Positions 3,797 through 59,573 of a DNA stretch of 64,000 bases are shown piece by piece (position 1 is the first letter of the stretch; every line of letters begins with the position of its first letter). Origin of the DNA: a candidate division WOR-3 bacterium. GTDB lineage: Bacteria > Hydrothermota > Hydrothermia > LBFQ01. The translations under genes were made by a program, and so were the position numbers. The notes beneath the pieces were generated by a model, which made no database searches, had not been told where the DNA came from, and worked only from the letters and a program-made list of their open reading frames with translations. The stretch is taken from the NCBI GenBank assembly GCA_039802605.1, contig JBDRWW010000001.1, positions 160,001 to 224,000 on the forward strand, given 5' to 3'.

Positions 3797-4666
3797 TTAT
3801 TTCTTTGAAAGTAAATCGTCCAAGGCCAAATCAATCGTTGGATACTTAAATACGAAACCTTCATCTATTAGCCTTTTGGGTATAACCCTTTGCCCCTCCA
3901 ATATTAAGTAATCCGCCACCTCACCCATTACAATTTTCAAAGCAAATGGGGGGATATGGAAAATGAGGTGTCTTTTCATCTTTTTTGCCAAAATCCTTGA
4001 AAACCCCTCGTTTGTTATAGGATTTGGGGAAACAACATTGTATATACCGGTTTTTTCATTTAAAATGAGGTATTCAACAATACTACACAAATCTTCTATA
4101 TGTATCCAACTCATCCATTGTTTCCCATCCCCTATTATTCCACCGACAAAAAATTTAAACGGTAAAACCATAAGTTTAAATGCTTTTGCATCTTTTGAAA
4201 GAACTACACCAAACCTAGTTATAACCCTCTTTATTCCCAAATCCTCTATTTCCCTTGTTGAATCTTCCCAATTCCTAACAACTTGCGTTAAAAAGTCTTC
4301 CTTTAAAGGTTGAGATTCTTCGGTGAATTCCGTATTTCTATCCCTACCGTAAAAACCAACTGCGGATGCCTGAACAAAGAGTTTTAACCTTTTGCCGGAT
4401 TTTTTAATCTCATCAACCAAAACCCTACCGGTATTCACCCTTGATTCCAAAATATTACGCTTAACCCTTTCATTCCACCTTTTTGATATGTTTTCACCCG
4501 CAAGGTTAACGATAACATCCCCATCGCTTATGTGTTTGTGGAGTTCATCGTATGTTAAACCCTTACCTTTAAACCTTGAAACCAATATTACATCGTAATC
4601 TTTTGAAAGGTAAGCCTTTAAATGCCTACCGATAAGCCCACTGCCACCAGCTATAAAAATTTTCAT
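3797..4666 (-). CDS. TIGR01777/YfcH-like NAD-dependent epimerase
   Basis: GGSGLIG Rossmann motif, NLAGENI..RW, ASAVGFYG, GDGKQWMSWIHIED. Confidence 0.9.
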   Translation of the reverse strand: MKIFIAGGSGLIGRHLKAYLSKDYDVILVSRFKGKGLTYDELHKHISDGDVIVNLAGENISKRWNERVKRNILESRVNTGRVLVDEIKKSGKRLKLFVQASAVGFYGRDRNTEFTEESQPLKEDFLTQVVRNWEDSTREIEDLGIKRVITRFGVVLSKDAKAFKLMVLPFKFFVGGIIGDGKQWMSWIHIEDLCSIVEYLILNEKTGIYNVVSPNPITNEGFSRILAKKMKRHLIFHIPPFALKIVMGEVADYLILEGQRVIPKRLIDEGFVFKYPTIDLALDDLLSKK

Positions 4667-4670
4667 CCAA

Positions 4671-4694
4671 AAATTATAAACCGGTTTATAATTT
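4671..4694. promoter_or_regulatory. Perfect 24-bp palindrome forming two back-to-back TATAAT -10 boxes
   Basis: AAATTATAAACCGGTTTATAATTT; each TATAAT lies 6 nt from an ATG (4666 minus, 4699 plus). Confidence 0.8.
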
Positions 4695-4698
4695 CTAT

Positions 4699-5092
4699 AT
4701 GCGGAAGGTTGTTTTTATTCTTGCCGCGGTTTTATTTATTACAAAATGCGCTAGTACGCCTATACCCTACGACACGGCGAGGATAGATGACAGTAAAGCA
4801 TTCGCAGGTGTATCCTTACAGAGTATGGATGTTCAAAACTATGAGTGCGATCTTTGGGGATGCAGTACGACATATTATGAAATTACCTTTATCAGGGGGT
4901 AATCCGGAGGTTTTAACACTCGGTATAAGTCTTAATTCTAACCTCCTGGATGCCTTTGCCTCCCCCTTTGCATCATTACACTTGCGGGACTTCACTTTTT
5001 CAATCCTTTACGGATATGGCCCTCAAATAGACCGTCCAGATAAAGGATATATCTCGACTTTTCATTTAGGCGTAGCAAAAAAGTTCAAATAA
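4699..5092 (+). pseudogene. Split putative lipoprotein / outer-membrane protein
   Basis: Lipoprotein-like signal MRKVVFILAAVLFITKC, stop at 4902 just after a G5 run; the +1 frame continues with beta-strand-like sequence ending FHLGVAKKFK. Confidence 0.45.
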
Positions 5093-5118
5093 ATCCTACA
5101 TCCTTAAAATTCACGCTT

Positions 5119-5355
5119 ATGTTTGAGGAGATGGGTAGGTTTATAGTTTTAATGGGGGTAATATTGGTTTTTATTGGACTGATTTTTATGGCCTTTGAGA
5201 AGTTTTCAATACCCCAAAATCCCCTTGACTTCCACTTTAAATGGAAGGGTATAGATATTTATTTCCCCTTGGGAACATCCATTCTAATATCCATAGGACT
5301 TACGCTTTTGCTTAACCTTGTGATATGGCTTTTTATATGGCTTACGAAAAGGTAA
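5119..5355 (+). CDS. Small membrane protein, DUF2905-like
   Basis: Two TM helices around PLDFHF..IYFPLGTSILIS. Confidence 0.75.
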   Translation: MFEEMGRFIVLMGVILVFIGLIFMAFEKFSIPQNPLDFHFKWKGIDIYFPLGTSILISIGLTLLLNLVIWLFIWLTKR

Positions 5356-5783
5356 TAACCGAAAACAAAAAGGCTTATCACGATTACGAGATAGAGGAAA
5401 CCTTTGAAGCGGGTATAGTTTTGGAGGGAAGTGAGGTTAAATCCGTAAAAATGGGAAAGGTTAGTATATCCGAAGCGTTTATACATCCAAAGGATGGCGA
5501 ATTATTCATATACAACATGCACATAGCACCTTATACAAAATCCAATGTTTTCACCCCAGATCCCAAAAGGCCGAGAAAATTGCTTTTACACAGAAGGGAG
5601 ATAGATAAAATAATAGGTAGGATAACCATAAGGGGATATACCGCCATACCCCTAAAAGTAATAGTTAAAAGGGGATGGGTTAAGGTTATTATAGCATTGG
5701 CAAAGGGTAGAAAGAAATACGAAAAGAAAGAACTTATTAAGCAAAGGGATATAGAAAGGGCTATGAGAAGGGGTGAATATTAA
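5337..5783 (+). CDS. smpB: SsrA-binding protein SmpB
   Basis: NKKAYHDY, EAGIVLEGSEVKS, RKLLLHRREI, KGRKKYEK; exact start (5325 or 5337) uncertain. Confidence 0.97.
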   Translation: MAYEKVITENKKAYHDYEIEETFEAGIVLEGSEVKSVKMGKVSISEAFIHPKDGELFIYNMHIAPYTKSNVFTPDPKRPRKLLLHRREIDKIIGRITIRGYTAIPLKVIVKRGWVKVIIALAKGRKKYEKKELIKQRDIERAMRRGEY

Positions 5784-5805
5784 ACCGCTATAAAATCCCA
5801 AGAAT

Positions 5806-6285
5806 ATGAAGAAATTGTGGGCTCCTTGGAGGTTTAAGTTCATCTTACATGTGGATAAAAGCGAATGTATATTTTGCACAAAGCCAAAAGAAGAAGACGA
5901 TAAGGCTTATATACTATTCAGGGGAAAGCACAACTTTGTTATATTGAACATATTCCCCTATAACTCCGGGCATGTGATGATAGCCCCGTATTCCCACAAA
6001 TCAACGCCCGAACTTTTAAGCGAAGAAGAATATAATGAAATGTTCAAATTATTACAGGTTTCCATAACGAATATCAAAAGGGCTTATAATCCCGACGGTT
6101 TTAACATAGGGTTTAACATAGGGAGGGTTGCCGGTGCGGGGTATGAAGGTCATATACACCTTCACATAGTCCCTAGGTGGAACGGGGATACAAACTTTAT
6201 GCCCATAATAGGGGATGTAAAGGTAATATCTCAGGGAATAGAGGAAACATATAAAACCCTAAAACCCCTTTTTGAGCGGCTTTAA
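5806..6285 (+). CDS. HIT-family hydrolase (Ap4A phosphorylase/Fhit-like)
   Basis: LWAPWR, CIFC, PYNSGH, HIHLHIVPRWNGDTNFMP. Confidence 0.92.
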   Translation: MKKLWAPWRFKFILHVDKSECIFCTKPKEEDDKAYILFRGKHNFVILNIFPYNSGHVMIAPYSHKSTPELLSEEEYNEMFKLLQVSITNIKRAYNPDGFNIGFNIGRVAGAGYEGHIHLHIVPRWNGDTNFMPIIGDVKVISQGIEETYKTLKPLFERL

Positions 6286-6296
6286 AATATATAGTT

Positions 6297-6941
6297 ATGC
6301 GAATAAAGGTTTTGGGTATTAACGGTTCTGCGAGGAGAAACGGTTGGACGGCAAAGTTTTTAAAGAGGGCTTTAATATTTTCCCAAAGGGCGGGTGCGGA
6401 AATTAAGTTAATAAACCTAGTTGATTACCCAATGAACTATTGTGCCGGTAATTACAGTGAACACCCGGCATTATGTCATTTGGAGAATTGCATTAAGGAT
6501 AAAATTGGGGATGCATTTGGTTCTTTGGTATGGGATATTTTGGAATCGGAGGCCATAATCTTTGCATCTCCCGTATATTGGTATTCCCCATCCGCACTTT
6601 TAAAAACATTAATAGAAAGATTGACATCCTTAGAGAACCAGAACGAGTTTATGCTTAGGGGTAAGGTTGCGGGTGTAATAGTTATCGCTGAAGAGGATGG
6701 GGGTATGCAGGTGGGTTCGCAAATCCTATCCGCACTAACCCAAATGGGTTTTATAATTCCCCCCTTGGGTGTGGTATACGCGCATAGGTTGTGGAGGGGG
6801 GATAGGATACACGAGGCGCTGGAGGATGCCGCAATGTTGGGGGTTAATGTGGTTAAACTCGCGGAAATGGTATCAAAACAGGATTGGGATTGGATAGAGG
6901 GTTGGAGGAAGTTCGCAAAGTCAAAAATCAAACGGTCTTGA
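6297..6941 (+). CDS. Flavodoxin-fold NADPH-dependent FMN reductase / iron-sulfur flavoprotein-like
   Basis: GINGSARRNGWT, ASPVYWYS, Cys cluster CAGNYS..C...C. Confidence 0.85.
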   Translation: MRIKVLGINGSARRNGWTAKFLKRALIFSQRAGAEIKLINLVDYPMNYCAGNYSEHPALCHLENCIKDKIGDAFGSLVWDILESEAIIFASPVYWYSPSALLKTLIERLTSLENQNEFMLRGKVAGVIVIAEEDGGMQVGSQILSALTQMGFIIPPLGVVYAHRLWRGDRIHEALEDAAMLGVNVVKLAEMVSKQDWDWIEGWRKFAKSKIKRS

Positions 6942-7552: not shown

Positions 7553-7982
7553 TCGGTATTTCCTTGGCTTTGGCCTTTTCAGTTTTGGGTATTTCTATGG
7601 TTAAAACCCCGTTTTCCAACTTCGCGGATATCTTATCGGGCTCCACATTGGAAGGCAATTGTATAGATCTTTGGAAAGAACCGTATAGGATTTCCCTCCT
7701 GTAATATTGGGCTTCCCTCTCCTCCTTTTCCTCTTTCCTCTCGCCCGATATGGTTAGGACATTATCAGAGACTTCAAGTTTTAGGTCTTCCTTTTTGACA
7801 CCCGGAACATCCACTTTGAGGATGTACTTATCGGGGAGTTCCTTTACCTCTATGGCCGGAGCCCAAGCGAATTCCCTATCAAGCCTCCTCTCGCTTATAA
7901 ATGCATCAAACAGCCTCTCCATCTCCCTCCTCAAATTCTCCAATTCCTTAAAAGGATCCCAGCGAACGATTTCCCTTGCCAT
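7545..7982 (-). CDS. Small heat-shock protein Hsp20
   Basis: WDPF, DVPGVKKEDL, LTISGER, YGSFQRSIQLP, LENGVL, terminal IPI; SD AAGGAGGTG. Confidence 0.96.
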   Translation of the reverse strand: MAREIVRWDPFKELENLRREMERLFDAFISERRLDREFAWAPAIEVKELPDKYILKVDVPGVKKEDLKLEVSDNVLTISGERKEEKEEREAQYYRREILYGSFQRSIQLPSNVEPDKISAKLENGVLTIEIPKTEKAKAKEIPIK

Positions 7983-8018
7983 GGCTTCACCTCCTTTTTA
8001 ACTTATGTTAACCACTCA

Positions 8019-8047
8019 ATTATGCCACAAAATTATTGCTTTGTCAA
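8019..8047 (-). promoter_or_regulatory. Sigma70 promoter of hsp20
   Basis: TTGACA-17 nt-CATAAT with an extended TG on the minus strand. Confidence 0.8.
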
Positions 8048-8064: not shown

Positions 8065-8093
8065 TTGACTACAAAAATTTCCAACCTTAAAAT
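8065..8093 (+). promoter_or_regulatory. Sigma70 promoter, near-leaderless, for ORF 8103
   Basis: TTGACT-17 nt-TAAAAT, 9 nt before the ATG. Confidence 0.75.
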
Positions 8094-8102
8094 TTTCGGC
8101 GT

Positions 8103-8870
8103 ATGATGTGGATAGTATTACTTTCGCAAAAGCCGGCCGTAGAGCCAATAGGGGTAAAAGATAGCACGGTGAAGGATGTGTATGACAAGGGGGAGATAGA
8201 CTGGACGCATGGGTTCATAAGGGCAAAGGGATACGGGTTCATAGACCCCAATAAACCCAAAGGTCAGGCCAAACTCCTTGCGGAAAGGGCCGCGGTTGTG
8301 GATGCCCGGAGGAATCTACTGGAAATCGTTAAGGGTGTTCATATAACCTCCGAGACGGTGGTTGAGGATTATATGGTTTCCAGCGATATAGTCGTTCAGA
8401 GGGTTGAGGGTCTGGTTAAAGACGCCAAGGTAATCGGAAAACCGAAGTACTATGAAGATGGAAGGGTTGAAGTTTGGGTTGAGATGAAACTGGATAACTT
8501 GGCCAAGACATTGCCCACAAAACCTTCCGTTAGCGAACCCCAAGAGAAACCCGAAGAAGGCGGTGTTATAATAAAAACCCCTGAGGGTACCAAGGCTTGC
8601 ATGTATCCAAGGATTCTTGATGAAAACGGCAATGTTTTGTTTGATGCTTCCCAATACCCGGAGGCAAAGGATATGTGGAGTAAGGCTATAAAATATGTGA
8701 AGGGTAAGGTTTCAACTCTACCCGGAGGTTCCATGGTTATAGAAGCATCGGAAACCAAAGGGTGTGATATAATCGTTAAAAAGGAGGATTTGGATAAGGT
8801 GAGCAAACTCAAAAAGTGGGGTTCATACATCCTCAAAGCCGGAAAGCTCATCATCAACCTTGTAATGTGA
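8103..8870 (+). CDS. LPP20-like exported protein
   Basis: GEIDWTHG.IRAKGYG and AERAAVVDARRNLLEIVKGV..SETVV; very short hydrophobic N-terminus; no lipobox Cys. Confidence 0.65.
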   Translation: MMWIVLLSQKPAVEPIGVKDSTVKDVYDKGEIDWTHGFIRAKGYGFIDPNKPKGQAKLLAERAAVVDARRNLLEIVKGVHITSETVVEDYMVSSDIVVQRVEGLVKDAKVIGKPKYYEDGRVEVWVEMKLDNLAKTLPTKPSVSEPQEKPEEGGVIIKTPEGTKACMYPRILDENGNVLFDASQYPEAKDMWSKAIKYVKGKVSTLPGGSMVIEASETKGCDIIVKKEDLDKVSKLKKWGSYILKAGKLIINLVM

Positions 8871-11481: not shown

Positions 11482-12215
11482 AACTCCAACCTTTTAAAAA
11501 TCCACTCCGGAATTGCCCTAACAACTAGCATTATAAACCGCCAATAATAAGGCGTATATACCACATCCTTACCCCTTTTTATGGCCTTGAATATGTCCTT
11601 TGCCACCCTTTCGGGTGTGGACAATAAGGGTTTTGGTATATCCAAGTCCTTTGTCATAGGTGTATCCACAAAACCGGGTTTTATGGTTATAACCCCTACC
11701 CCTTTTTTGAACATCTTAGCCCTTAAACCGCTTAGGTATTGCGTAAGGCCGGCCTTTGCGCTTCCATATACAAAATTTTTAGCCCTACCCCTATCACCCG
11801 CAACGGAAGATATAGCCACTATTGTCCCCTTGCCCCTCCGCTCCATATAATCCGCTATTATGTTGATTATTGAAATTGCGCCCAAATAATTCGTTTCAAC
11901 GATTTTACGGGCTTCGGAAAAATCCTTTAAAGCCTTATCGTTATTCCCCAAGTATCCAAAGGATATTACCGCTACATCAACATCCCCGAAATCCTTTAAA
12001 ACATTGTCCCAAAAACCCTTATGGCTTTCGTAATCGGTAGCATCAAACTCCCCGAATTTAATATCCTTACCGTATTTCAAACGCAAATCCTTCGCAACCC
12101 TTTCCAACTCCTCTATATTTCTACTTGCCAAAAATACATCCCAACCTTCTTTTAACATCTCAACGGCCAAAGCCCTCGCAATAAAAGAGTTTGCACCCAA
12201 AATAACAACCTTCAA
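11478..12215 (-). CDS. SDR oxidoreductase (DprE2-like subfamily)
   Basis: GANSFIA, SSVAGDRGR..N..YGSAKAGL (YxxxK), KPGFVDTPMT. Confidence 0.85.
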   Translation of the reverse strand: MKVVILGANSFIARALAVEMLKEGWDVFLASRNIEELERVAKDLRLKYGKDIKFGEFDATDYESHKGFWDNVLKDFGDVDVAVISFGYLGNNDKALKDFSEARKIVETNYLGAISIINIIADYMERRGKGTIVAISSVAGDRGRAKNFVYGSAKAGLTQYLSGLRAKMFKKGVGVITIKPGFVDTPMTKDLDIPKPLLSTPERVAKDIFKAIKRGKDVVYTPYYWRFIMLVVRAIPEWIFKRLEF

Positions 12216-12233
12216 CCTATCATTTTAAACCCG

Positions 12234-14164: not shown

Positions 14165-14589
14165 CTCAACCCCCTTAGATAAGACCTAACCCAATATGTT
14201 TTTGAACTTATAAGCGCGGAATTCCCGACAACAACATAATAAACCCCCTTTGCCAATACCGGTGAATAGGAAACATCTGGAACCGCCTCAACATAACCGT
14301 TTAACTGGGCGCTTTCGCCGTTATCCCATTTTGCATAATTTACGCTGTCCGCCCAAAAGGCATAGCTTATATCACCATCACCCGTTTTAACCCTCGCTTC
14401 AAAGTAAAGGGTATCCCCGTCTTGGGCTTCAAACTTTATCCAAAAGTATGAGCGGGGACCTAAGGAAACCGTGCCGTGGTATAGGTCAATGCTTGTAGGC
14501 CTTCCCGATTGCTGAGGAGGGTGTTGTTCCTCCTCATTTTTACATCCCAAAATTGCGGCAAAAAGTATAAACATAACAAACAACCTCAT
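14161..14589 (-). CDS. Hypothetical lipoprotein
   Basis: MRLFVMFILFAAILGC lipobox; TATAAT 9 nt upstream of ATG 14589; beta-rich domain with GVYYVVVGN. Confidence 0.7.
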   Translation of the reverse strand: MRLFVMFILFAAILGCKNEEEQHPPQQSGRPTSIDLYHGTVSLGPRSYFWIKFEAQDGDTLYFEARVKTGDGDISYAFWADSVNYAKWDNGESAQLNGYVEAVPDVSYSPVLAKGVYYVVVGNSALISSKTYWVRSYLRGLR

Positions 14590-14673
14590 AAAGGTAATAT
14601 TATAACCCTGTTCTGTTAGAGGACTTGTATAACCGTATCCCACAAAAAACCCGACAAAATTATAATACCCTAT

Positions 14674-16386: not shown

Positions 16387-16404
16387 GTTAAAGTTTTACC
16401 ACCT

Positions 16405-47464: not shown

Positions 47465-47492
47465 AGATTTCACCCTTATAATACCGCCCTCT

Positions 47493-48978: not shown

Positions 48979-49858
48979 TCTCTGAGTGGTTTTTGGATAT
49001 AACGGCATATGTTCGTGGTGTTTCGTAAATTTTTAGAATATCCGCTTGCGTTTTATTGAAAATATATTCCGCTATGTTTTCAAGTGTGGGGTTATCAATG
49101 AAATCGTTTAAAATGTTATGGTCAAATTCTTTTACCACTCTTTCCGCTTTGGAAAAAGCCTTATCATCTTTTGAAAACACCACGAGCAAATAGTTATGAC
49201 CATGGGATTCCCTTTTGGCGCATTTCCCAAAAACTTTAAGGTTTTCCTCGTATTTGAATGTCTTCAATCCGAGTATATGGGCTGCGGAAAATTTGTAAGT
49301 TTTAAAATTTAGCCTTTCACCCCTTACTAATATATATCCCCCTTTATCCTCAACCCTTTCATACCTTTCAAAAAACCTCTTAGGGGAGGTAAAAATCCCT
49401 TTCAAATCCTCAACAATACCCCTATTATCCAAATATCCTTTAACCCAAGTTTCGTACTTCCAAGTGGCACCATTAAAGTTTAACCACTTAAAAGATCCGA
49501 GCAGATTATTCTTACCATCGTATGCCCCGAAAACATCCTCATCCTCAAAAACCTTCACGGAATAAACATTTTCCAAAACCCCCTTTACATTTTCGTAAAG
49601 AACCTTTGATATAATTTCAACGGTTGGGTTTAAACCCTCAAATTCCGGCATAGAATTTAAAAGGGTGTGATCAAATCTTTCAATTATGGGATTAACTTTT
49701 TCCTTTATTTCCGATATGTTCATAACCATACCCAAGTCGTTTATTTTCCCCTTAACGATAACCCAAACCTCATAGTTGTGGCCGTGGAGGTTTTTTAATT
49801 TTCCACCAAAGTTGTAGAAATGCGCCGATTCAAACTCAAACTTCCTCGCCAAAAACAT
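48962..49858 (-). CDS. Two-domain QueD/6-pyruvoyl-tetrahydropterin synthase
   Basis: Two T-fold units, each with F..AH, HGHNY, DH..LN and PT.E; Cys only in the second (GKCAKRESHGHNY). Confidence 0.85.
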   Translation of the reverse strand: MFLARKFEFESAHFYNFGGKLKNLHGHNYEVWVIVKGKINDLGMVMNISEIKEKVNPIIERFDHTLLNSMPEFEGLNPTVEIISKVLYENVKGVLENVYSVKVFEDEDVFGAYDGKNNLLGSFKWLNFNGATWKYETWVKGYLDNRGIVEDLKGIFTSPKRFFERYERVEDKGGYILVRGERLNFKTYKFSAAHILGLKTFKYEENLKVFGKCAKRESHGHNYLLVVFSKDDKAFSKAERVVKEFDHNILNDFIDNPTLENIAEYIFNKTQADILKIYETPRTYAVISKNHSEIIPAI

Positions 49859-49901
49859 CACCGGAAATTATAAGGGGTTAAGGGTTTTTAAATGCCAATG
49901 C

Positions 49902-50907: not shown

Positions 50908-52491
50908 TACCAAAACCCTTTTAACCCCGTTAGAACCTTTATAGAAATAAATCCCCTTATTTTCCGGTTTTGAAACCCTCCTACCATCAACCGTATACAG
51001 AAAACCGTTTTCCTTTATTATAAATCTCTCTTTCTCCATAACGATTGTGGAAGGTTCTTTAAAGCCTATATTTGCTATCCAAGTAGTCCATAAAGAATCC
51101 GTTCCCGCCTTCGGCAATTCCGCTATAACCCATAATGAGGAATCAACGGGATCAGGAGAACCCCCAAAATAATCCCCCCACCTGTTTCTACCGGAACCGT
51201 GGTCGTTAAAGTACCAACTTAAACCCGCTTTATACACATTGTAAGGGGAAAATAGTGTATCATAACTCACCCTTGCTATGTATGTGGCGGATGGATAGTT
51301 CGTACCGGATATGCCAACCCTCGTGAAGCTTATGGCAACACCCTTAGGCGATACGCTCACAGCCGGGTATATCCAACTTATCCCGTTCTCGTATAACCTC
51401 CTATCCTCCAAAACCACACCCGTTGTATCAACCACGACAAACCTAACGGATACCAACGAGGAATTAAGGGGGTGCGCTTCGTTAAATGCGTAGTAAATCT
51501 TTCCGTTTAGATAATAAACCTGAAAGGTTGCGAGTACAACTTCAAGGTTCGGATAACCCCCTCCCTGGGGGGCATCAGGAGGGGTGGAATATGGGGAGAT
51601 CGACAGGGTTATGCATGGTGAGAGTTGGGGCGATGAAACAGGCCCGTAGATTTTATACATCCTGTTAAACCTTATCAGATAAACGGCATCGGAATAATCA
51701 TAAGTACTCCTTGAAACCCTCGGCCAAGAGGGCATACAACCCAACTCCGAATCAACAAAATCCTCCCAAGATGATAGGGTACCATTATATGCGTCGGCTT
51801 TATTTAAAACCCTAACCTTTGGGTAATACGCATAGGATGAAAAACCTATCTGTTGTGAGGATATTACTATCCACTTATCGTTAAAACCCAATTCCGGATA
51901 ATCCGCCCAGTTGTTTGTTAAGGTGTTATCATCGTATTTGGCGTTTAGTCGGTAAAAGTACCATCCCCCTAAGGGGTTATCCCCCTCCGAAACGGCCAAC
52001 AGGTAATGGGATTCCCTGCTTGAAGAGTTGTAATACAAGGCCAAAACTATCCACCTTCCGGAAATTATGTCGTAAGCTATCTTAGGGTCAAAGGGCAAAC
52101 CCCCGGAGGGTATTACGGATGAAAAAAACCCGCGAAGAGTATTGATATATTCCGTAATCCCGGTAAATTTGTTTATAAATGCGATACTCGTATTAACCAC
52201 CACACCCACATGTGTGCTACAAGCGGCGAGTTGTGGATCCGGTGGTATCCAACCCGTATAGAAAATGCCTTCAAAATCCCTTATAAGGGTATCGGATGGG
52301 TAGGGGAGAAAGTCGGGATAAGGCCCCGTTTTATTTCCAAGGGGAACTTCTGCGGATTTTTCCCAAACATTTACATTCCTAAATTCCATAACCTCCTCCG
52401 GTGTTATCGGTATGTACTCCTTTGGGGGATTTGGCATATACGCCGTTTTTATTAAAACCGTATCAATTGCCAATATAAATAATCCCATCAT
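50899..52491 (-). CDS. Hypothetical secreted protein with T9SS-like tail
   Basis: PPDPQLA, FDPKIAYD...RW, WADYPELG, NRWGDY; tail LYTVDGRRV...KGIYFYK. Confidence 0.8.
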   Translation of the reverse strand: MMGLFILAIDTVLIKTAYMPNPPKEYIPITPEEVMEFRNVNVWEKSAEVPLGNKTGPYPDFLPYPSDTLIRDFEGIFYTGWIPPDPQLAACSTHVGVVVNTSIAFINKFTGITEYINTLRGFFSSVIPSGGLPFDPKIAYDIISGRWIVLALYYNSSSRESHYLLAVSEGDNPLGGWYFYRLNAKYDDNTLTNNWADYPELGFNDKWIVISSQQIGFSSYAYYPKVRVLNKADAYNGTLSSWEDFVDSELGCMPSWPRVSRSTYDYSDAVYLIRFNRMYKIYGPVSSPQLSPCITLSISPYSTPPDAPQGGGYPNLEVVLATFQVYYLNGKIYYAFNEAHPLNSSLVSVRFVVVDTTGVVLEDRRLYENGISWIYPAVSVSPKGVAISFTRVGISGTNYPSATYIARVSYDTLFSPYNVYKAGLSWYFNDHGSGRNRWGDYFGGSPDPVDSSLWVIAELPKAGTDSLWTTWIANIGFKEPSTIVMEKERFIIKENGFLYTVDGRRVSKPENKGIYFYKGSNGVKRVLVLE

Positions 52492-52501
52492 CCCATTTAT
52501 T

Positions 52502-53119
52502 CTAAGGGAGGGAGATCCTATAAATGGATACCCGGGTTTTGTATATGTCCCTTTTGTGAAAACCCATAGAACGCCTTATTTTAAAGACAACATCCCCCTT
52601 CCTTTCAAAGGAAAAACCGTAAATTTTAGACAGCTTATCCAGAAACGGGTCACTGTTTGCCCCCAAAAGTGTCCAAACAACCTTTGCGCCCCTTATGGCG
52701 CATTCAATGAACTCTCTATCCGCCCCCTTTCTCTGCATACCAAAAGGGGGATTCATAATAACGGTATCACACTTAAAGTTAAACACCCTAACATCGGCGT
52801 TAATAAAATACACCGGTAATTTCCCATAAATTTCATCGGCCAGTAAAAGGTTCCTTTTTGCAACCTTTAACGCTTCAAGGTCAATATCAACACCTACGAC
52901 AAACTTTGCACCCAATATGGCGGCCCCTATACTCAAAACACCCGTCCCGCACCCAAGATCAAAAACGACCTTACCCTTTATATCCTTATAAGCCATATTC
53001 AGAAATTTCGCCGCTATTTCCGGAGGGGTTGGGTATTGTTCCAAGCGGGGTTTCGGATTTATAAAGGTTGCAAGGGTTTGTAAGAATATTTCATCCTGTT
53101 TCCTTAACATACCCTTCAA
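52502..53119 (-). CDS. METTL5/COG2263-like N6-adenine RNA methyltransferase
   Basis: PKPRLEQYPTP..IAA, DLGCGTGVL, VDID, IMNPPFG, AD..F. Confidence 0.9.
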   Translation of the reverse strand: MKGMLRKQDEIFLQTLATFINPKPRLEQYPTPPEIAAKFLNMAYKDIKGKVVFDLGCGTGVLSIGAAILGAKFVVGVDIDLEALKVAKRNLLLADEIYGKLPVYFINADVRVFNFKCDTVIMNPPFGMQRKGADREFIECAIRGAKVVWTLLGANSDPFLDKLSKIYGFSFERKGDVVFKIRRSMGFHKRDIYKTRVSIYRISLP

Positions 53120-54291
53120 GTCTTTTTATAATTCCGTAGAAACACGATAATTAGGATGAATGTGGAATAGAGAATAACGGTCCATAAAGGGATTTTGAAT
53201 TCAAGGGCTGGCAATCGTAGGTTATAAGCAAGCACAACCAAACCGTAAAGTGTATTGAAGAGAAGTTCCGCCGATTTGTCAAAGGGGTAGCCCACGAACA
53301 TTGCCAGTATTTGGGAATACATAAACAAGGTCATTATGGGAATAACCAAAAGGTTTAAAGGAGCATAAATTATTGGGGATTTCCCAAAGAAATAAAGGGA
53401 AAAGGGTGTTGAGAATATTAAGGCGCCGAAAACGGATGTTATGGTGTTTTTTGGTAATAAAATAAACCCGAGAATTGCGGAAAATGATAACCAAAAGGAT
53501 GGGGAGAATATCCAAATGGGTTCCCATAGAAGGCATAAGGCAAAGGCCAACATAAACACATTTAAGGGCTTTACGGGCCTTGATATAATCTTTGATACTG
53601 CATAAAGGGTTAGCATTAGAGACGCCCGGAAAACGGAAGGGATAAGGCCCACAAAAAACGCATAAACCCAAACGAATAGGGATGAAAGAACATAAGACCA
53701 AACCCCAAGCCTTAGAAACCTGAGAATATGCAAAATCGCCAAGAATATTATACCTACATGCAATCCGGAGATCGCAAGGATATGCCCAACACCCGTATCG
53801 TAAAACATAGTTTTTGTTTTATAATCCAATTCCCTAACACCGGTTATAACCGATTTTGCAAACAAATACTGCCTTTCAGAACCGGTTGATTTTATAAGTA
53901 ATTTATCAACGATATCAACAAATGGCCGAAAGGAGGAGAATTTGTAATATTCGGAAACATAGAGGGTATCTTTTGAAAAATTTCCTTTAACCAAAATATT
54001 TCCAACGGGATAAGCCAACTTATCACCAAACAAAACGGTTTTAAACCCTTCGCCTACAACAAACCCCTTACCGATATCATAAACTTGAACCTCGTAAAAA
54101 TCACTCCCCTTTGGTATAAGCCTCTCCCAAACCCTTATGTATCCCAAGAGGAAGCAAAGTATAATTCCAAGAACCTCTAGGGGCTTTCTTAGAAACAATG
54201 GCAATAAAACAAAGGGTAAAAGGGCGAAGCCCGTAAATTTAAAAGATATGCCCAAAAATACAAAAAACGAGCATAAGGAGGGATAGTACAA
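53116..54291 (-). CDS. comEC: ComEC/Rec2 competence membrane protein (no beta-lactamase domain)
   Basis: TGVGHILAISGLHVG, PSVFRA, SFWLSF, N..VIP; TTG 54291 inferred from TATAAT 6 nt upstream. Confidence 0.92.
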   Translation of the reverse strand: MYYPSLCSFFVFLGISFKFTGFALLPFVLLPLFLRKPLEVLGIILCFLLGYIRVWERLIPKGSDFYEVQVYDIGKGFVVGEGFKTVLFGDKLAYPVGNILVKGNFSKDTLYVSEYYKFSSFRPFVDIVDKLLIKSTGSERQYLFAKSVITGVRELDYKTKTMFYDTGVGHILAISGLHVGIIFLAILHILRFLRLGVWSYVLSSLFVWVYAFFVGLIPSVFRASLMLTLYAVSKIISRPVKPLNVFMLAFALCLLWEPIWIFSPSFWLSFSAILGFILLPKNTITSVFGALIFSTPFSLYFFGKSPIIYAPLNLLVIPIMTLFMYSQILAMFVGYPFDKSAELLFNTLYGLVVLAYNLRLPALEFKIPLWTVILYSTFILIIVFLRNYKKT

Positions 54292-54344
54292 GAAAAAATT
54301 ATATGTTGGTTTGGAAAATTTCACCGACCATAGAATAAACAACT

Positions 54345-54629
54345 ATGGAGATTTTGTTGAATGCGCTTGTTGTGGTTTCAATTTTGAGTTTAATATCCAT
54401 CACGGTGGCGATATGGTATTTGGTATTGAAGATTACAAAAACCCTTGAAAGCATAGACAAGAACATAGAAAAGATGGCGGACGATATGGAGAGGATTTTG
54501 AAGAATGCCGATAGCATAACGGAAAAAATTGACAACATCTTAACCCCCATTGAAAGGATAACAAAGATTACACCGATTTTGAGTTTAATTGTTAGGTTTT
54601 TCCCCTTTTTCAAAAAGGGTAAAAAATAA
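54345..54629 (+). CDS. Small TM + coiled-coil protein (DUF948-like)
   Basis: N-terminal TM then heptad repeats; TAGAAT 8 nt upstream. Confidence 0.7.
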   Translation: MEILLNALVVVSILSLISITVAIWYLVLKITKTLESIDKNIEKMADDMERILKNADSITEKIDNILTPIERITKITPILSLIVRFFPFFKKGKK

Positions 54630-54649
54630 CGGCCTTATAATACCACCTT

Positions 54650-56305
54650 ATGAAAAGGTGTATATTTGTTTTACCGCTGTTGGCAGGCCCCTTAGGGGCA
54701 CAACTCTTCTACGCGTATCCCCAGACGGTATTCGGTCTCAGAGGGGTGTATTCCTTCCGCTTCATGCACACGGCTTTCCTGTTTGAGGACGACTTGGATA
54801 GGCTGTTCTACCCCGTTAAACTCTCGGAAATAGAGGGTGGTAGGTTCTTCTCCGCGTTGTCCAACCCCTTCGGGAACGAAAGGGCGCTTGACCCCACGGC
54901 CCCTACAAACAACCAGTTAATCTTAGGAGCAAAGACAAATGTTTTCCTAAACCTTTCTCCTTTGTATATGCAAACGGATCTAAACTTTGGAGTTTCTTCC
55001 AAATTGGACACGGTTTATTATCAAAATTGGAGTAATCCGGATAACAAGTACGCGGATAGGATAGAATTAAAGGATACCGTGTTCCAAGGTAGAGGATACG
55101 GCGAAAAGGGTTTCCTATTATCCCTAGGAAATCAAACCTTTGGCTTCCTGTTCCTCTATTCAAGCATGAATATTAAGGTTTATCCACAAAGAACGGGGGT
55201 TTTCCCATTCTCTTATGGAAATTACGCGTATGTGCGTAAAGAATACGATAACATAAACAACACCTTACAATCCTCAGATTCCGCGGTATCTTACAGAACC
55301 GTTGATACAAGTATAACACCCGTTTTGTTTGGGGTATCGCTTGGTTTCGGAGGGTTTTCCGGAATGGTTTTTGGCGGTTTTATGGGCGCAGGCGATAGGG
55401 ATACGGCAAATAGGTATGCGGAGAGAAACACAAATCCGGCAAGTCCGTTTACCGGTCAGAAATGGAATGGTGTTTTAACCGCTAACGGTAGAGCCTCAGG
55501 GCCCATATTCGGATTGCAGGGGGATTTGGCCTTCGGTTCCGAAACCTGGAAGTCCAACCTGATGTTTGCCTATGCCCTTAGATACCTTTCAAACGGAAAA
55601 GGTAAATCAAACGAGGTGAACTGGTGGGGAATATATAACGCCACTCAATACCCCACTTTTAGCACACTCGATTCTACTATCGGCGAGTACAAATATTCTT
55701 CAAATACACACGATATAACCATATATCTGAGGAATAAATATCCGGTTCACGAGCAGGTTTTGTTCGGTGCCGGATTGGCCTTAGAAATGGTGTTTGGGGG
55801 AATGAGTAGGGATTACACAAATGTTTTAAACAAAAGGATAACCTTTAACGATACCGATGGGGACGGTCTCGTTGATGCCCCCGGAGATGTTAGAACAACC
55901 AATTATACCAAATATTCTTATAAGGAGAATGTATCAACCACATCTTTTAACTACCACATACCCGTTGGCTTTGAAGTTGTACCCATAGCGAGTTGGGAGG
56001 ATGTTAAGTTAAGGCTTGGGGCACTGTATTCCCATACATCAACTACAACGACTACAAAAACCTATAATTGGAGCGTGGAGAGTAAAACTAAAACCGAAAC
56101 ATCGGGGGGAACAACGGAAACCCCAAACGATATAACCGTACCTGGTGAGAACATATCCAAGACAAAAACCTCCATATCAAACACCGCTTTCTATTACGGC
56201 GCATCCGTGGCGATAGCAAAGAGGGTTGTTATAGACTTTACCGGCTTTGGAAACGGGATATTAACACCGGCTTTTTGGAACATATCCGTTGTACTAAGGT
56301 ATTAA
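54650..56305 (+). CDS. Putative outer-membrane beta-barrel protein
   Basis: Canonical signal peptide, amphipathic strands (IPVGFEV, LRLGA, FYYGASV), C-terminal WNISVVLRY. Confidence 0.7.
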   Translation: MKRCIFVLPLLAGPLGAQLFYAYPQTVFGLRGVYSFRFMHTAFLFEDDLDRLFYPVKLSEIEGGRFFSALSNPFGNERALDPTAPTNNQLILGAKTNVFLNLSPLYMQTDLNFGVSSKLDTVYYQNWSNPDNKYADRIELKDTVFQGRGYGEKGFLLSLGNQTFGFLFLYSSMNIKVYPQRTGVFPFSYGNYAYVRKEYDNINNTLQSSDSAVSYRTVDTSITPVLFGVSLGFGGFSGMVFGGFMGAGDRDTANRYAERNTNPASPFTGQKWNGVLTANGRASGPIFGLQGDLAFGSETWKSNLMFAYALRYLSNGKGKSNEVNWWGIYNATQYPTFSTLDSTIGEYKYSSNTHDITIYLRNKYPVHEQVLFGAGLALEMVFGGMSRDYTNVLNKRITFNDTDGDGLVDAPGDVRTTNYTKYSYKENVSTTSFNYHIPVGFEVVPIASWEDVKLRLGALYSHTSTTTTTKTYNWSVESKTKTETSGGTTETPNDITVPGENISKTKTSISNTAFYYGASVAIAKRVVIDFTGFGNGILTPAFWNISVVLRY

Positions 56306-56334
56306 ACATTTCACCTTTATAATACAAGGTTAGC

Positions 56335-56425
56335 GGAGAGGTGGCCGAGCGGTCTAAGGCGGCGGCTTGCTAAGCCGTTGGGGAGGGTAATACCTCCCCC
56401 GTGGGTTCAAATCCCACCCTCTCCG
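56335..56425 (+). tRNA. tRNA-Ser(GCT), CCA not encoded
   Basis: GGAGAGG acceptor stem pairing with CCTCTCC, D-loop GGTCTAAGGC, anticodon arm GCGGC-TT-GCT-AA-GCCGT, long variable arm, GGTTCAAATCC; TATAAT at 56318. Confidence 0.97.
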
Positions 56426-56437
56426 CTTTTTTGGGTT

Positions 56438-56707
56438 ATGGAACTTTATGAAATCTACATAGAGGTTTTTAGTACAGAGGTTATACCTTTGAGCGAATTC
56501 CTTTTGGATGTAAAAAAGGGGAAATATGGGAATTTTTCGGAAGAGGATATAAGGGCTTTTAGGTATCGGTTGGAAAACAACATTCAGGAAAGCGCGTACT
56601 TGAAGGGCGAGGAATTATCCCTAAGCGACATAGATATTGAAAGTGTTATTGAAGAAAACATAGAGGAGATTAGAAAAACCTTTTTGGAGGTCTTCGGTTG
56701 GTTGTAG
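56438..56707 (+). CDS. Acidic hypothetical protein
   Basis: ATG 56438 just after the tRNA; the ORF-track start lies inside the tRNA; overlaps the uppP start. Confidence 0.6.
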   Translation: MELYEIYIEVFSTEVIPLSEFLLDVKKGKYGNFSEEDIRAFRYRLENNIQESAYLKGEELSLSDIDIESVIEENIEEIRKTFLEVFGWL

Positions 56708-57450
56708 AAAAGATAATATTGGGTATTGTTCAAGGCATTACCGAGTTTTTACCCGTTTCAAGTTCCGGGCATCTGGTTTTTTTAAAACACATTTTTGGAT
56801 TGGAATTTAAGGGGGCATTCTATGAAACGTTTTTACATACCGCCACATTTCTTTCCGTAGTATTTGTATTGCGGGATAAAATTTTTAACCCACAAAATTT
56901 TAGAAAATATTTTCCACTTTCGGTGGTGGCCACAATACCCCTAATTCCCACCGTTTTTATAATAAAACCCCTTGAAGATACGTTTAACAACCCAAAAATT
57001 TTAGCTTTTACATTTCTCATAACCGGTGTTTTCCTGTTTTTAACCCTATTTGCACCAGAGGGGAATGAAAAACCCAATTTAAAAAATTCAATAATTATGG
57101 GTATATTTCAAACAATGGCCTTGCTGCCGGGAATTTCCAGGTCGGGGATTACAATATCTTCGGGGATATTTTCAAAAATGGAACCCGAAGAGGCCTTCAA
57201 TCTATCCTTTTGGATATTTTTACCCGCATCCCTCGGCGCCTTTGTTCTGGAAAGCAGATACATAAAAGAAATAAGCCTTAATATTTACGATTTTATCGTA
57301 TGGATAATAACATTCCTCGTTGGCGTTATATCCCTTAAAATATTAAGGCGGGTTCTTCTGGGTAAATTCTTCTGGGTTTTTTCGGTTTATACCCTATTCC
57401 TTTCCATCCTATCCTTCCTAATTTTCAACCTTAGAATTATTACACCATGA
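56698..57450 (+). CDS. uppP: Undecaprenyl-diphosphatase
   Basis: GIVQGITEFLPVSSSGHL, ALLPGISRSG.TI. Confidence 0.96.
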   Translation: MVVEKIILGIVQGITEFLPVSSSGHLVFLKHIFGLEFKGAFYETFLHTATFLSVVFVLRDKIFNPQNFRKYFPLSVVATIPLIPTVFIIKPLEDTFNNPKILAFTFLITGVFLFLTLFAPEGNEKPNLKNSIIMGIFQTMALLPGISRSGITISSGIFSKMEPEEAFNLSFWIFLPASLGAFVLESRYIKEISLNIYDFIVWIITFLVGVISLKILRRVLLGKFFWVFSVYTLFLSILSFLIFNLRIITP

Positions 57451-57854
57451 AAAGGATTTTAGTGATATTGGCATTTGTTTTGCCTATCGTGGTATTTGCG
57501 GATAAGGGGCATAAAAAGGGGAAACCCGTTAAGGAGATAGAGGGAGTAATAAGCGGGGCGGTCTGCGGGGTTTATGGTATTGCGTGTAACCACCGGCCTG
57601 GGGAACGCGGATACGAGTTACTCGGATTGTTCAACGATAAAAGGGGATTCTTTTACTTGGCAAATGTTCCTCAGGATATTTTGGCAAAGATAAACAGGGA
57701 AGAGGTCTTAGTTGTGGGTGAGGTTTATAGGGAGAGGGCAACGATAATAGCCGAAAAAATTATAAAGGATGGGAATGTAGTGTGGCAAGCGGAGGTGAAG
57801 GAAGACAAAGCAAAGGAAGGGGAGGAAAAGGACAAAGGGAGTAAGAGTAAGTAA
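57447..57854 (+). CDS. Hypothetical exported protein
   Basis: Canonical signal MKRILVILAFVLPIVVFA; two Cys; charged tail. Confidence 0.65.
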   Translation: MKRILVILAFVLPIVVFADKGHKKGKPVKEIEGVISGAVCGVYGIACNHRPGERGYELLGLFNDKRGFFYLANVPQDILAKINREEVLVVGEVYRERATIIAEKIIKDGNVVWQAEVKEDKAKEGEEKDKGSKSK

Positions 57855-57857
57855 AAA

Positions 57858-58841
57858 CTAGGGAATTATAGCATACTTAAAGCCTTTGCCATTTTTGAGG
57901 TTTTCAAAGGCTTCACCAATATCTTCCAAAGGGTAGTATCCGCTTATGAGAAATTCAAAATTTTTGTGGTTTTTCAACAAAAAATTATAAGCCTTCCTAA
58001 CGCTTATCGGCGTATGGTGAAAGGAAGTTAATATTTGTATTTCGTTGTAATGCAAAGTGTGCGGATTTAATGTTATACTAGCATTCCTTTCCAAACCCGC
58101 AAACATTAGGAAATATCCCCCTTTATTTACGAACTCGAAAAACCTGTGTATAACATCCACGCTTGCGGTTGTATCTATTACGAGGTCAAATTTTCCGGAA
58201 AGTTTATCCGCTTTACATATCCCTACACCCGTGTGTTTTGCAAATAAATTAAGCTTTTCTTCACTCCTTCCACAAACAAGGACATCCTTATCGTAGGATC
58301 TTAGTACCAAAGAAAACATTGCGGAAATTGAACCGCTACCGAGGATTAAAACGCTTTCAAACCTATCAAAGGGCAACTTTTCAAGGGCTCTCATTACGCA
58401 TGAGAGGGGTTCAATAATGGGGGCTATATGGAAGGGCAAGTATTCCGGTTTTTTAAAGAGGTTTATCTTTACAACATTTTCCGGTATGAGTAGGTATTCG
58501 GCATATGCCCCCAAAACCATGTTTTTAAATAGGTTCTCACATAAGTTAAACCTATTTTTCACACATTGAGTGCACTTAAAACAAGGCGCCGTATTTACCC
58601 CAAAAACCTCATCTCCCACTTCAAAACCCACAACCCCCTCACCCACACTATGAACCACCCCGGAATATTCGTGCCCAAATGGTCCACGTCTTAATATCGG
58701 ATGTCCCCTTAAAACCGCTTTTAAATCCGTCCCATCCGTTAGGGCCGCCTTTACCTTTATAACCAACTCACCATAAGAGGGTTGTGGCTCCGGAACCTCC
58801 AAAACTTCTAAACCCTTATCCGTTAAATATGCGGCCTTCAA
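57858..58841 (-). CDS. Zn-dependent MDR dehydrogenase (sorbitol/threonine DH-like)
   Basis: GHEYSG, structural C..C..C.......C, IEPLSC, GSGSI. Confidence 0.9.
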   Translation of the reverse strand: MKAAYLTDKGLEVLEVPEPQPSYGELVIKVKAALTDGTDLKAVLRGHPILRRGPFGHEYSGVVHSVGEGVVGFEVGDEVFGVNTAPCFKCTQCVKNRFNLCENLFKNMVLGAYAEYLLIPENVVKINLFKKPEYLPFHIAPIIEPLSCVMRALEKLPFDRFESVLILGSGSISAMFSLVLRSYDKDVLVCGRSEEKLNLFAKHTGVGICKADKLSGKFDLVIDTTASVDVIHRFFEFVNKGGYFLMFAGLERNASITLNPHTLHYNEIQILTSFHHTPISVRKAYNFLLKNHKNFEFLISGYYPLEDIGEAFENLKNGKGFKYAIIP

Positions 58842-58880
58842 GCCGATATTCTAAATCCGACAACCTTAAAATATATTATT

Positions 58881-59078
58881 GTGCGTAGGGAATTGGTTTG
58901 GAGGGGTCTTGATAAAGTATATAGATATTTGGGTTATGTCCTATTAGGGGTTGAGTTCTTAACGGATAATTTGATAAAGATACATATACTAACGCCGAGA
59001 TGGACGATAAAGGAGTTAATAGCGATAGTGGAATTTAAGGGGGAATTTGCCTTTAAGGTAAAAATACTAAAACAATGA
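58881..59078 (+). CDS. Small hypothetical protein
   Basis: 65-aa ORF with CCT-TAAAAT 8 nt upstream of the GTG. Confidence 0.5.
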   Translation: MRRELVWRGLDKVYRYLGYVLLGVEFLTDNLIKIHILTPRWTIKELIAIVEFKGEFAFKVKILKQ

Positions 59079-59099
59079 TTCTGCCTTAGAATACTCTCT

Positions 59100-59573
59100 A
59101 TGACGGAATTAAAAGTTGAAAAGGGTAAATATGTTAAGTTTGAATACGAGTTGTATTTGGCGGATAACGATCAACTCGTGGATGCGGGTGTTGTTGATTA
59201 TTGCCACGGCAACGGCGAGATATTTCCAAAGTTGGAACGGGCATTGGAAGGTGCTTCCGTTGGGGATATTCTGGATATAACCCTTTCCCCACAAGATGCG
59301 TTTGGGGAGTTTGATAGGGAACTCGTTAAGGAGATACCGCTGGATTATTTTGAGGATAAGGATGTTAAGCCCGGGCAAATTTTAAGGGCACAAACGGTTG
59401 ATGGTACGGTTTTTCAATTTACGGTTCTTGATGTTAAGGATAACATCGTATATGCGGATTTTAATCATCCATTAGCGGGTGAAACGGTTAGGTTTAAGAT
59501 AAGGATTTTGGAAATAAACGATGAAAAACCGGAAGGCGGATGTTGTTGCGGAGGAGGTTGCGGTTGCTCGTAA
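59100..59573 (+). CDS. slyD: FKBP-type PPIase SlyD with Cys-rich tail
   Basis: HG.GEIFPKLE.ALEG, P.DAFG, DFNHPLAG, tail GGCCCGGGCGCS. Confidence 0.94.
   Translation: MTELKVEKGKYVKFEYELYLADNDQLVDAGVVDYCHGNGEIFPKLERALEGASVGDILDITLSPQDAFGEFDRELVKEIPLDYFEDKDVKPGQILRAQTVDGTVFQFTVLDVKDNIVYADFNHPLAGETVRFKIRILEINDEKPEGGCCCGGGCGCS

Follow-up and report, generated by a model that had tools for sequence, protein, structure and literature searches.

In the genome examined here, most genes that require a promoter of their own appear to carry it directly against the start codon, so that the majority of messages probably start on or very close to the AUG. A TANAAT hexamer, probably the -10 box of the housekeeping promoter, stands a few nucleotides (nt) before the start codon of about three quarters of operon heads, a placement that would leave the message with no leader or with one of at most about 4 nt. 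We studied this box in a 64,000-nt stretch of DNA, hereafter the window (contig C1, positions 160,001 to 224,000), and throughout its source genome, G000 (1.65 Mb, 41% guanine plus cytosine [GC], 90% complete). The source bacterium is a relative of "Candidatus Caldipriscus," an uncultured hot-spring member of phylum WOR-3; the SmpB protein shares 90% identity with those of two "Ca. Caldipriscus" entries. Near-leaderless initiation of one form or another is highly probable from the sequence evidence; the best explanation overall, to which we give a probability of roughly 0.55, is that a family-wide downstream shift of the transcription start places it on the AUG itself.

A preliminary description of the window had proposed that transcripts begin at or within a few nucleotides of the start codon at 37 genes led by TATAAT, TAAAAT, or TAGAAT (once TATTAT), and the present sequence analysis supports that proposal. 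All 37 coordinates proved to be in-frame start codons on the expected strand with such a box at a gap of 6 to 10, where the gap is the number of nucleotides between box and start codon; for 43548 the script gave an 11-nt register, and the 8-nt register was read by eye. The start codons are ATG in 31 genes (gap 6 in 3, 7 in 3, 8 in 15, 9 in 9, and 10 in 1), TTG in 5 (gap 6 in 4 and 7 in 1), and GTG in 1 (gap 8). CCT, said to precede the box often, does so at only 14 of the 37 starts, and a C six bases before the box is present at 34 (33 by script, plus 43548 by eye). This C at -18, the C-rich discriminator that follows the box, and the different spacing of TTG starts were overlooked earlier. 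Three starts are doubtful: neither a family match nor a homolog among the fetched loci supports the open reading frames (ORFs) at 18650 and 58881, and the TTG at 54291 (ComEC) aligns with ATC in a relative (L334). In-frame start codons are paired at 30678/30681 and 49858/49861.

Because some of the listed starts had been picked using the motif, we built a gene caller that takes no upstream information (1,599 genes, 93% coding; some short or overlapping genes were dropped). A start was accepted as motif blind if it was both the first start codon of its ORF and the best coding start, and an operon head was a gene that is divergent or more than 25 nt from the upstream gene. Strict TANAAT at gap 6 to 10 was found at 13 of 18 such heads in the window (dinucleotide-shuffle mean, 0.39; maximum, 2) and at 244 of 397 in the genome (mean, 8.9; maximum, 16), a 27-fold enrichment. 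The spacing peaks at 8 to 9 nt genome-wide, and no box peak occurs upstream of 7,282 internal ATGs of G000. A matrix trained on the box-led sites of G000 (background, 1.5%) matched 307 of 374 divergent heads, 302 of 351 once weak genes and followers of transfer RNAs (tRNAs) were removed, 439 of 608 heads (72%) under the GeneMarkS-2 head rule, and 595 of 1,528 genes overall (39%); matches were rare (19 of 431) at genes overlapping the upstream gene by 1 to 11 nt. The claim that nearly every independent start carries a box thus holds for 72 to 86% of operon heads, not for all. Inside genes, matrix matches lie antisense (385) more often than sense (218).

Shine-Dalgarno (SD) sites had been described as absent from box-led genes and found mainly on operon-internal ones, and the pairing free energies (dG) bear this out. 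Pairing at dG of -5 or below occurs at 42 of 595 box-led genes, whereas controls taken from within those genes pair in 246 of 595 cases; pairing at -8 or below occurs at 20 of 595 box-led genes (control, 70); the latter threshold is reached by 134 of 489 overlapping genes and 98 of 257 near ones (controls, 44 and 33). The 16S rRNA of G000 ends in CACCTCCTTT, leaving the anti-SD intact. The two heads named earlier as SD led, hsp20 and sod, do have strong SD sites, with gaps of 36 and 38 nt between box and start codon. SD-led heads in fact form a small second class of abundant proteins, which had also been missed: leaders are retained by 16 SD genes with the main element 21 to 83 nt upstream, by rpoD, and by ribosomal-protein operons. 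Among the 16 are proteins resembling EF-G, ACP, CspA, HU, and ferredoxin, as well as sod, the only name not assigned by resemblance.

Aligned on the box, 616 sites share an A-rich and then a T-rich stretch, C at -18 in 88% (for sites with a strict box, 530 of 586), RRCCT, TANAAT, and then A or T, C, C, C, and a purine, or C-N5-TANAAT-WCCCR in short form. With position n denoting the nth base after the box, discriminator positions 2 to 4 are C in 49, 59, and 57% of sites, a C-rich discriminator being also a feature of promoters with a scrunched start of the rrnB P1 type. A -35 element is usually not evident, as previously noted: five of the six bases of TTGACA occur in 37 of 608 cases versus 17 of 608 controls, and between positions 24,000 and 43,999, -35/-10 pairs are no commoner than chance (48 versus 48.1 in shuffles). 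No TGn extended -10 was seen, -15 being C in 64% and -14 being G in 15%. The same element precedes 41 of 46 tRNA genes at 8 to 16 nt (four of the five without it sit within one cluster), transfer-messenger RNA, and RNase P RNA, and, on the evidence of sequence, these sites and those of the leadered SD genes therefore mark it as a promoter and not a ribosome site. The hexamer would then be a sigma70-type -10 box.

If the motif were instead a translation signal, such as a non-SD ribosome site of the Bacteroidota kind, or AT-rich background, its SD-like distance and the 59% AT of the genome would be accounted for, but not its place before 41 of 46 tRNAs and other untranslated RNAs or its near absence at overlapped internal genes. 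This view, very improbable and already largely refuted, is also at odds with the 27-fold excess over shuffles, an equally strong box at 58.6% GC, and a 16S tail that retains CCUCCUUU.

A second putative promoter class, TTGACA-N15-GG-YATWAT-TG, occurs at 11 sites, among them those of 16S rRNA, hsp20, and a groES-like gene (including sites at G000 C3:80331, C14, and C10:4540). Its discriminator is rich in purines, and it lacks the C at -18. The hsp20 and groES-like leaders share a TTAAC-N4-GTTAA inverted repeat, a possible heat-shock operator.

Only one family, comprising 11 of 201 WOR-3 genomes, combines C at -18 with a spacing of 8 nt. C-N5-TANAAT-N8-ATG occurs in 151 to 221 copies in each of the 11 (reversed control, 3 to 20) and in at most 62, near control, in the other 190 genomes searched. 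When the C was disregarded and boxes were counted as the excess over a control distance of 38 to 40 nt in 68 genomes, eight family genomes gave 419 to 663, with gaps 8 to 10 the larger part in all eight; seven sister-family genomes gave 239 to 373, evenly split between gap classes; and other WOR-3 genomes gave up to about 270, mainly at gaps 5 to 7. In divergent heads sampled from 135 to 395 kb per genome, a box at gap 5 to 11 was present in 85 of 94 in G140 (58.6% GC) and 83 of 94 in G152 (control distance, 23 in each), 22 of 30 in G138 (9), 20 of 38 in G053 (5), 14 of 32 in G006 (8), and 15 of 42 in G149 (6), genomes whose kinship means that they are not independent samples. On this distribution, box-led heads are of old standing in WOR-3 and dominate in this order, and the C and the long spacing are traits of the family.

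The box is also conserved gene by gene. Orthologs were compared for genes found within about 390 kb per relative: the aligned codon is itself a start codon in 74 of 96 from G146 (same genus), 48 of 72 from G140 and 38 of 61 from G186 (sister genus), and 20 of 48 from the more distant G152, and of these, 69, 44, 34, and 11, respectively, also carry the box. In some orthologs the codon aligned with the start is ATC, ATT, or CTG, in a few cases with the box conserved ahead of it, and these may be rare start codons.

Transcription in Escherichia coli most often begins at the 7th base past the box but at the 9th where the discriminator is CCT (PMC5730371); rrnB P1 is likewise reported to start at the 9th base by scrunching (PMC7822876). 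Under our preferred explanation, the C-rich discriminator would shift the start 2 to 3 nt downstream by DNA scrunching, as in rrnB P1, to position 9 or 10, which is the A of most ATG genes, and the ribosome would initiate from the 5' end of the mRNA without an SD site. Some initiation at positions 6 to 8 would have to occur too, because 34 TTG genes need an earlier start. Operon-internal genes would use SD sites or overlapping stop/start codons, and the small set of abundant proteins would retain a leader with a strong SD. The motif and its spacing, conservation, and distribution are observed directly; promoter function, the start site, leaderless translation, and scrunching are inferred.

Several observations fit a start on the AUG. 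Box-led ATGs are found at gap 6 (24), 7 (66), 8 (167), 9 (123), 10 (36), 11 (16), and 12 (9); at gap 8, no purine stands between position 7 and the A of ATG in 134 of 167 genes; and T stands at -1 of the start in 335 of 432 box-led versus 42 of 97 SD-led starts. The tRNA promoters of G000, which no start codon constrains, have no purine at positions 7 and 8 in 41 of 41 cases and their first purine at 9 or 10 in 35 of 41, as in 33 of 40 from three family relatives. The first purine lies at position 7 in 7 of 9 from G152, 5 of 10 from G138, and 5 of 7 from G006 (17 of 26 together), matching the shorter ATG gaps of these three genomes. That mRNA and tRNA promoters are shifted in parallel is what chiefly leads us to favor a start on the AUG.

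A number of points weigh against it. TTG starts peak at gap 6 to 7 (34 of 49; P = 2e-9 versus ATG), where their G coincides with the predicted transcription start, and 0 of 916 zero-leader genes are reported to start with TTG in Deinococcus deserti (PMC4007540). Discriminator purine content (positions 2 to 4) is uncorrelated with the gap (rho = 0.02; P = 0.64), the ATG at gap 9 is the first purine in just 57 of 123 genes, the tRNA promoters of G053 (3 of 3 at 9 to 10) depart from the outgroup pattern, and neither sigma nor beta' was found to carry a change suited to reading C at -18. The gene caller used for the counts dropped some real genes, and the matrix percentages are partly circular because the matrix was trained on these genes. 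Of nine RNA runs listed, four were compared with positions 4,500 to 24,400 of the window: two raw-read runs gave 0 reads (3% read), and two contig-only runs gave 22 and 11 contigs with no pile-ups of ends, which contigs cannot show.

The TTG spacing leads to a possible but less favored alternative, in which the same promoters start at positions 5 to 7 throughout and mRNAs carry a pyrimidine leader of 1 to 4 nt (CUU-AUG, C-UUG). U-rich stubs of this kind, produced by RNA polymerase or by excision of an upstream tRNA, would then be preferred by the ribosome of this lineage. TTG at gap 6 to 7 is real, given that the family matches of SDR, IspE, ThiE, and the dehydrogenase begin at residues 1 to 4; six TTG-TTG ortholog pairs with G146 have mean gaps of 6.5 and 7.0, and ATG/TTG swaps occur at gap 6. 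The offsets recur where a start codon follows a tRNA, with TTG at 1 nt in 11 and ATG at 3 to 5 nt in 4, and their R-C/T-TTG and R-CTT-ATG contexts resemble the sequences after the promoter. Positions 4 and 5 form a pyrimidine-purine step (purine at 5 in 83%), and both ATG and TTG cut off sharply below gap 6. However, the tRNA promoters would require pyrimidine starts at position 7 in 41 of 41 cases or else starts at position 5, anti-scrunched by 2 nt, and such anti-scrunching is reported to be rare in E. coli (PMC5730371). Short leaders are also reported to halve translation per nucleotide in Caulobacter (PMC8459731), the TTG shift recurs in G146, of the same genus (P = 0.009), is not apparent in the sister genus (P = 0.24 and 0.54), and is reversed in G152, and no member of the RNase Z family, a candidate for the tRNA cut, was found in G000 or G140. 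Whether transcripts start on the AUG or carry so short a leader, leaders below 6 nt would fall within the leaderless cutoff given in PMC4007540.

It is improbable that the box is real while most transcription comes from farther upstream, by read-through or from an unseen promoter, with ordinary leaders read without an SD. Read-through is possible in that terminator-like hairpins between positions 24,000 and 43,999 are no commoner than chance (24 versus 28), and RNA-library contigs span some intergenic stretches, though these contigs are indistinguishable from DNA. Divergent heads 32 to 45 nt apart, however, have no space for two ordinary leaders; Rho is present, and the spacing is held at 6 to 10 nt across orthologs.

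Start codons also adjoin tRNA genes. Among the 42 terminal tRNAs of G000, those with no further tRNA behind them, 26 are followed by an in-frame start 0 to 5 nt past the discriminator base (22 TTG, 4 ATG) with no promoter of its own, and 32 have a start codon within 12 nt; CCA is not encoded. In the window, the 89-amino-acid (aa) ORF at ATG 56438 begins 12 nt past tRNA-Ser(GCT) without its own box, and a relative (L162) has the same junction. Such junctions recur in G146 (8 of 12), G140 (7 of 16), G186 (10 of 19), and G152 (7 of 14) and are scarce in G138 (2 of 15), G006 (1 of 16), and G149 (1 of 9). In animal mitochondria, tRNAs punctuate the transcript and start codons adjoin the excised tRNAs. 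The arrangement here is alike in having start codons 0 to 5 nt from an excised tRNA 3' end and near-leaderless messages, and unlike in that every tRNA is served by a promoter of its own and adjoins a gene on its 3' side only. RNase Z was considered as the enzyme freeing these downstream messages and set aside, since family TIGR02651 was not found in G000 or G140; three other metallo-beta-lactamase-fold frames occur in G000. Leaderless tRNAs dispensing with RNase P are ruled out by the presence of RNase P.

The initiation and processing machinery looks ordinary. RNase P RNA and protein, IF3, and Rho are present, as is a full-length S1-like protein that scores 483 bits, below the 577 cutoff; with the anti-SD also retained, a lost part was rejected as the cause. 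CarD was not found in five genomes, which gave only Mfd-length frames. In regions 2.4, 3.0, and 4.2, RpoD has the residues normally found there, including the arginine reported near -18 in E. coli (positions in RpoD and beta' follow E. coli numbering). No obvious family-specific sigma change that could read C at -18 emerged among 26 aligned RpoD proteins; regions 2.4/3.0 are nearly identical in the sister family, which lacks that C, and the beta' zipper is ordinary in four family members and one outgroup. Residue R451 of sigma70 is described as sensing position -18 (PMC3130263), and a spacer element read by the beta' zipper is also on record. Common to these cases is that promoter strength depends on a base of the spacer close to -18; the difference is that the C is nearly fixed in G000, where arginine and zipper look ordinary. 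Three sigma factors were found in G000: RpoD, an ECF-like protein (175 aa), and a divergent 279-aa sigma (L086, C13:8856-9695). The infC gene (L277, contig C2 of G000) seems to begin with ATG after a strong SD and has TTG in G146 and G156; an AUU start is known for infC from other bacteria.

The idea that each gene is a portable unit is overstated, as only 595 of 1,528 genes are boxed and 746 are boxless and overlap the upstream gene or lie within 25 nt of it. About 60% of genes are boxless, most of them operon internal, and the unit is therefore a short operon. Among genes with orthologs in about 390 kb per relative, a box-led gene retains its upstream neighbor in 19 of 99 cases in G146, 1 of 77 and 1 of 81 in the sister genus, and 0 of 70 further out; for box-less same-strand genes, the figures are 106 of 138, 48 of 126 and 36 of 103, and 6 of 71. 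Shuffling is strong, and its breaks coincide with promoter boundaries, as expected at any transcript boundary.

The individual elements of the window are collected in Table 1. In four back-to-back pairs (4666-4699, 34791-34827, 38145-38179, and 58841-58881), the starts are 33 to 40 nt and the -10 boxes 6 to 13 nt apart, and any -35 would fall within the start region of the opposite gene; 4666-4699 is a near-perfect palindrome. Many box-led genes (8103, 14674, 26850, 41173, and others) open with a short hydrophobic stretch, and the box fixes their starts independently.

Table 1. Candidate promoter elements and the starts they precede in the window (gap in nucleotides)
Start (gene)	Element	Gap	Positions	Strand	Remark
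ATG 4666 (TIGR01777 oxidoreductase)	C-N5-TATAAT	6	4664..4684	-	back-to-back with 4699, starts 33 nt apart
ATG 4699 (67-aa ORF, no family)	C-N5-TATAAT	6	4681..4701	+	L002 homolog has box too
ATG 5119 (DUF2905, heads smpB)	C-N5-TAAAAT	8	5099..5121	+	box also in L002-L004
ATG 5806 (ATP adenylyltransferase-like)	C-N5-TAAAAT	9	5785..5808	+	
ATG 6297 (FMN reductase)	C-N5-TAAAAT	8	6277..6299	+	
ATG 7982 (hsp20)	TTGACA-17-CATAAT, purine-rich discriminator, no C at -18	36	7980..8047	-	strong SD
ATG 8103	C-N5-TAAAAT	9	8082..8105	+	
TTG 12215 (SDR)	C-N5-TAAAAT	6	12213..12233	-	family match from residue 2, TTG thus required
ATG 14589	C-N5-TATAAT	9	14587..14610	-	
ATG 14674	C-N5-TATAAT	7	14655..14676	+	
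ATG 16449 (sod)	C-N5-TATAAT, leadered	38	16399..16451	+	strong SD
ATG 18650 (65-aa ORF, unconfirmed; heads dprA)	TAAAAT, no C at -18	8	18648..18670	-	
ATG 18706 (peroxidase-like)	C-N5-TAAAAT	6	18688..18708	+	
ATG 19069	C-N5-TATAAT	8	19049..19071	+	promoter partly within end of upstream gene
TTG 24954 (ispE)	C-N5-TATAAT	6	24952..24972	-	family match from residue 1
ATG 26796 (biotin carboxylase)	C-N5-TAAAAT	9	26794..26817	-	
ATG 26850	C-N5-TATAAT	8	26830..26852	+	
ATG 30678 or TTG 30681 (fructose-6-phosphate aldolase)	C-N5-TAAAAT	9 or 6	30676..30699	-	
ATG 30747	C-N5-TAAAAT	8	30727..30749	+	
ATG 34791 (acetate-CoA ligase)	C-N5-TAGAAT	9	34789..34812	-	back-to-back with 34827
ATG 34827 (OsmC family)	C-N5-TATAAT	8	34807..34829	+	
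TTG 38145 (thiE)	C-N5-TAAAAT	7	38143..38164	-	back-to-back with 38179
ATG 38179 (fused 2-oxoacid dehydrogenase E1)	TAGAAT, no C at -18	8	38159..38181	+	
ATG 40152 (prenyltransferase)	C-N5-TAAAAT	8	40132..40154	+	
ATG 41173	C-N5-TATAAT	9	41152..41175	+	
ATG 43548	C-N5-TATTAT	8	43546..43568	-	
ATG 43627 (PG0541 family, heads TolC-family gene)	C-N5-TAGAAT	8	43607..43629	+	
ATG 46944 (aminotransferase)	C-N5-TAGAAT	9	46942..46965	-	
ATG 46997 (ResA-like thioredoxin)	C-N5-TAGAAT	8	46977..46999	+	
ATG 47493 (M23 peptidase)	C-N5-TATAAT	10	47471..47495	+	
ATG 49858 (QueD)	TATAAT, no C at -18	8	49856..49878	-	in-frame GTG 49861 at gap 5
ATG 52491	C-N5-TAGAAT	7	52489..52510	-	
TTG 54291 (ComEC; start uncertain)	C-N5-TATAAT	6	54289..54309	-	
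ATG 54345	C-N5-TAGAAT	8	54325..54347	+	homolog L097 has box too
ATG 54650	C-N5-TATAAT	8	54630..54652	+	
tRNA-Ser(GCT) 56335-56425, then 89-aa ORF (ATG 56438)	main promoter, box 56318-56323	11	56312..56440	+	
ATG 57447	C-N5-TAGAAT	9	57426..57449	+	promoter within end of uppP
TTG 58841 (Zn-dependent dehydrogenase)	C-N5-TAGAAT	6	58839..58859	-	family matches from residue 1
GTG 58881 (65-aa ORF, unconfirmed)	C-N5-TAAAAT	8	58861..58883	+	
ATG 59100 (FKBP-type isomerase)	C-N5-TAGAAT	7	59081..59102	+	

The basic layout is already known from Deinococcus and actinobacteria; the predicted share of heads is more extreme here and the spacing longer. Genomes of GeneMarkS-2 group C, or TA-led genomes, are described as having a Pribnow box about 10 nt before operon-first genes and SD sites on internal genes, the same dual start model as here, and the consulted portions of these accounts do not list WOR-3 with such groups (PMC6028130, PMC3160421). 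The localized box, the SD sites on internal genes, and the putative promoter element that characterize such genomes at the sequence level all appear in G000. Group C bacteria are credited with 25 to 50% leaderless operons and Mycobacterium tuberculosis with spacers of 6 to 8 nt (PMC6028130, PMC3160421); for G000 the same head rule predicts 72%, and the mode is 8 to 9 nt. In D. deserti and Deinococcus radiodurans, promoters are likewise -10 only with no conserved -35, and about a third of all genes and the majority of mRNA starts are reported as leaderless (PMC4007540, PMC12340547). The differences are that 60% of starts were measured as leaderless in D. deserti versus 72 to 86% of heads predicted here (PMC4007540), that the box lies 6 to 7 nt upstream in D. 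radiodurans versus 8 to 9 (PMC12340547), and that its form is TANNNT versus a full TANAAT plus C at -18 (PMC4007540, PMC12340547). TTG makes up 3 of 1,174 starts (0.3%) in D. deserti (PMC4007540) versus 49 of 529 single-start boxes in G000, so that the near restriction of experimentally leaderless mRNA to AUG and GUG does not hold here. In its C-rich discriminator and in a predicted start 9 nt after the box, the element resembles rrnB P1 and other promoters of E. coli with a CCT discriminator (PMC7822876, PMC5730371). The downstream start is an exception in E. coli and apparently, by prediction, the default here, with no -35 or UP anchor; the rRNA promoter of G000 itself belongs to the TTGACA/purine-rich class. 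The system described here thus differs from the known systems in share of heads, spacing, C at -18, TTG use, and tRNA-adjoining starts. A literature search, confined largely to papers outside the subscription journals, returned no account of leaderless genes or such promoters in WOR-3.

Tentatively, and we consider it unlikely in its entirety, these features could together amount to expression driven from the 5' end, in which one promoter type, with a previously undescribed C at -18 and a downstream start by default, would render most messages leaderless. The ribosome would then initiate on AUG or UUG 0 to 5 nt from ends made by polymerase or, as in mitochondria, by tRNA excision, and self-contained 20-nt modules of promoter plus start would let units shuffle freely. 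If 5' ends agree, the leaderless share would lie above those of the compared bacterial transcriptomes (72 to 86% of heads predicted versus 60% measured in D. deserti) despite an intact anti-SD. The family, apparently shifted by 2 to 3 nt and flanked by graded outgroups, would offer a natural test of what sets the start position and of whether a ribosome at a 5' end can initiate on UUG or behind a very short U-rich leader. In practice, gene starts in the Caldipriscus family should be called from the promoter and not from SD sites.

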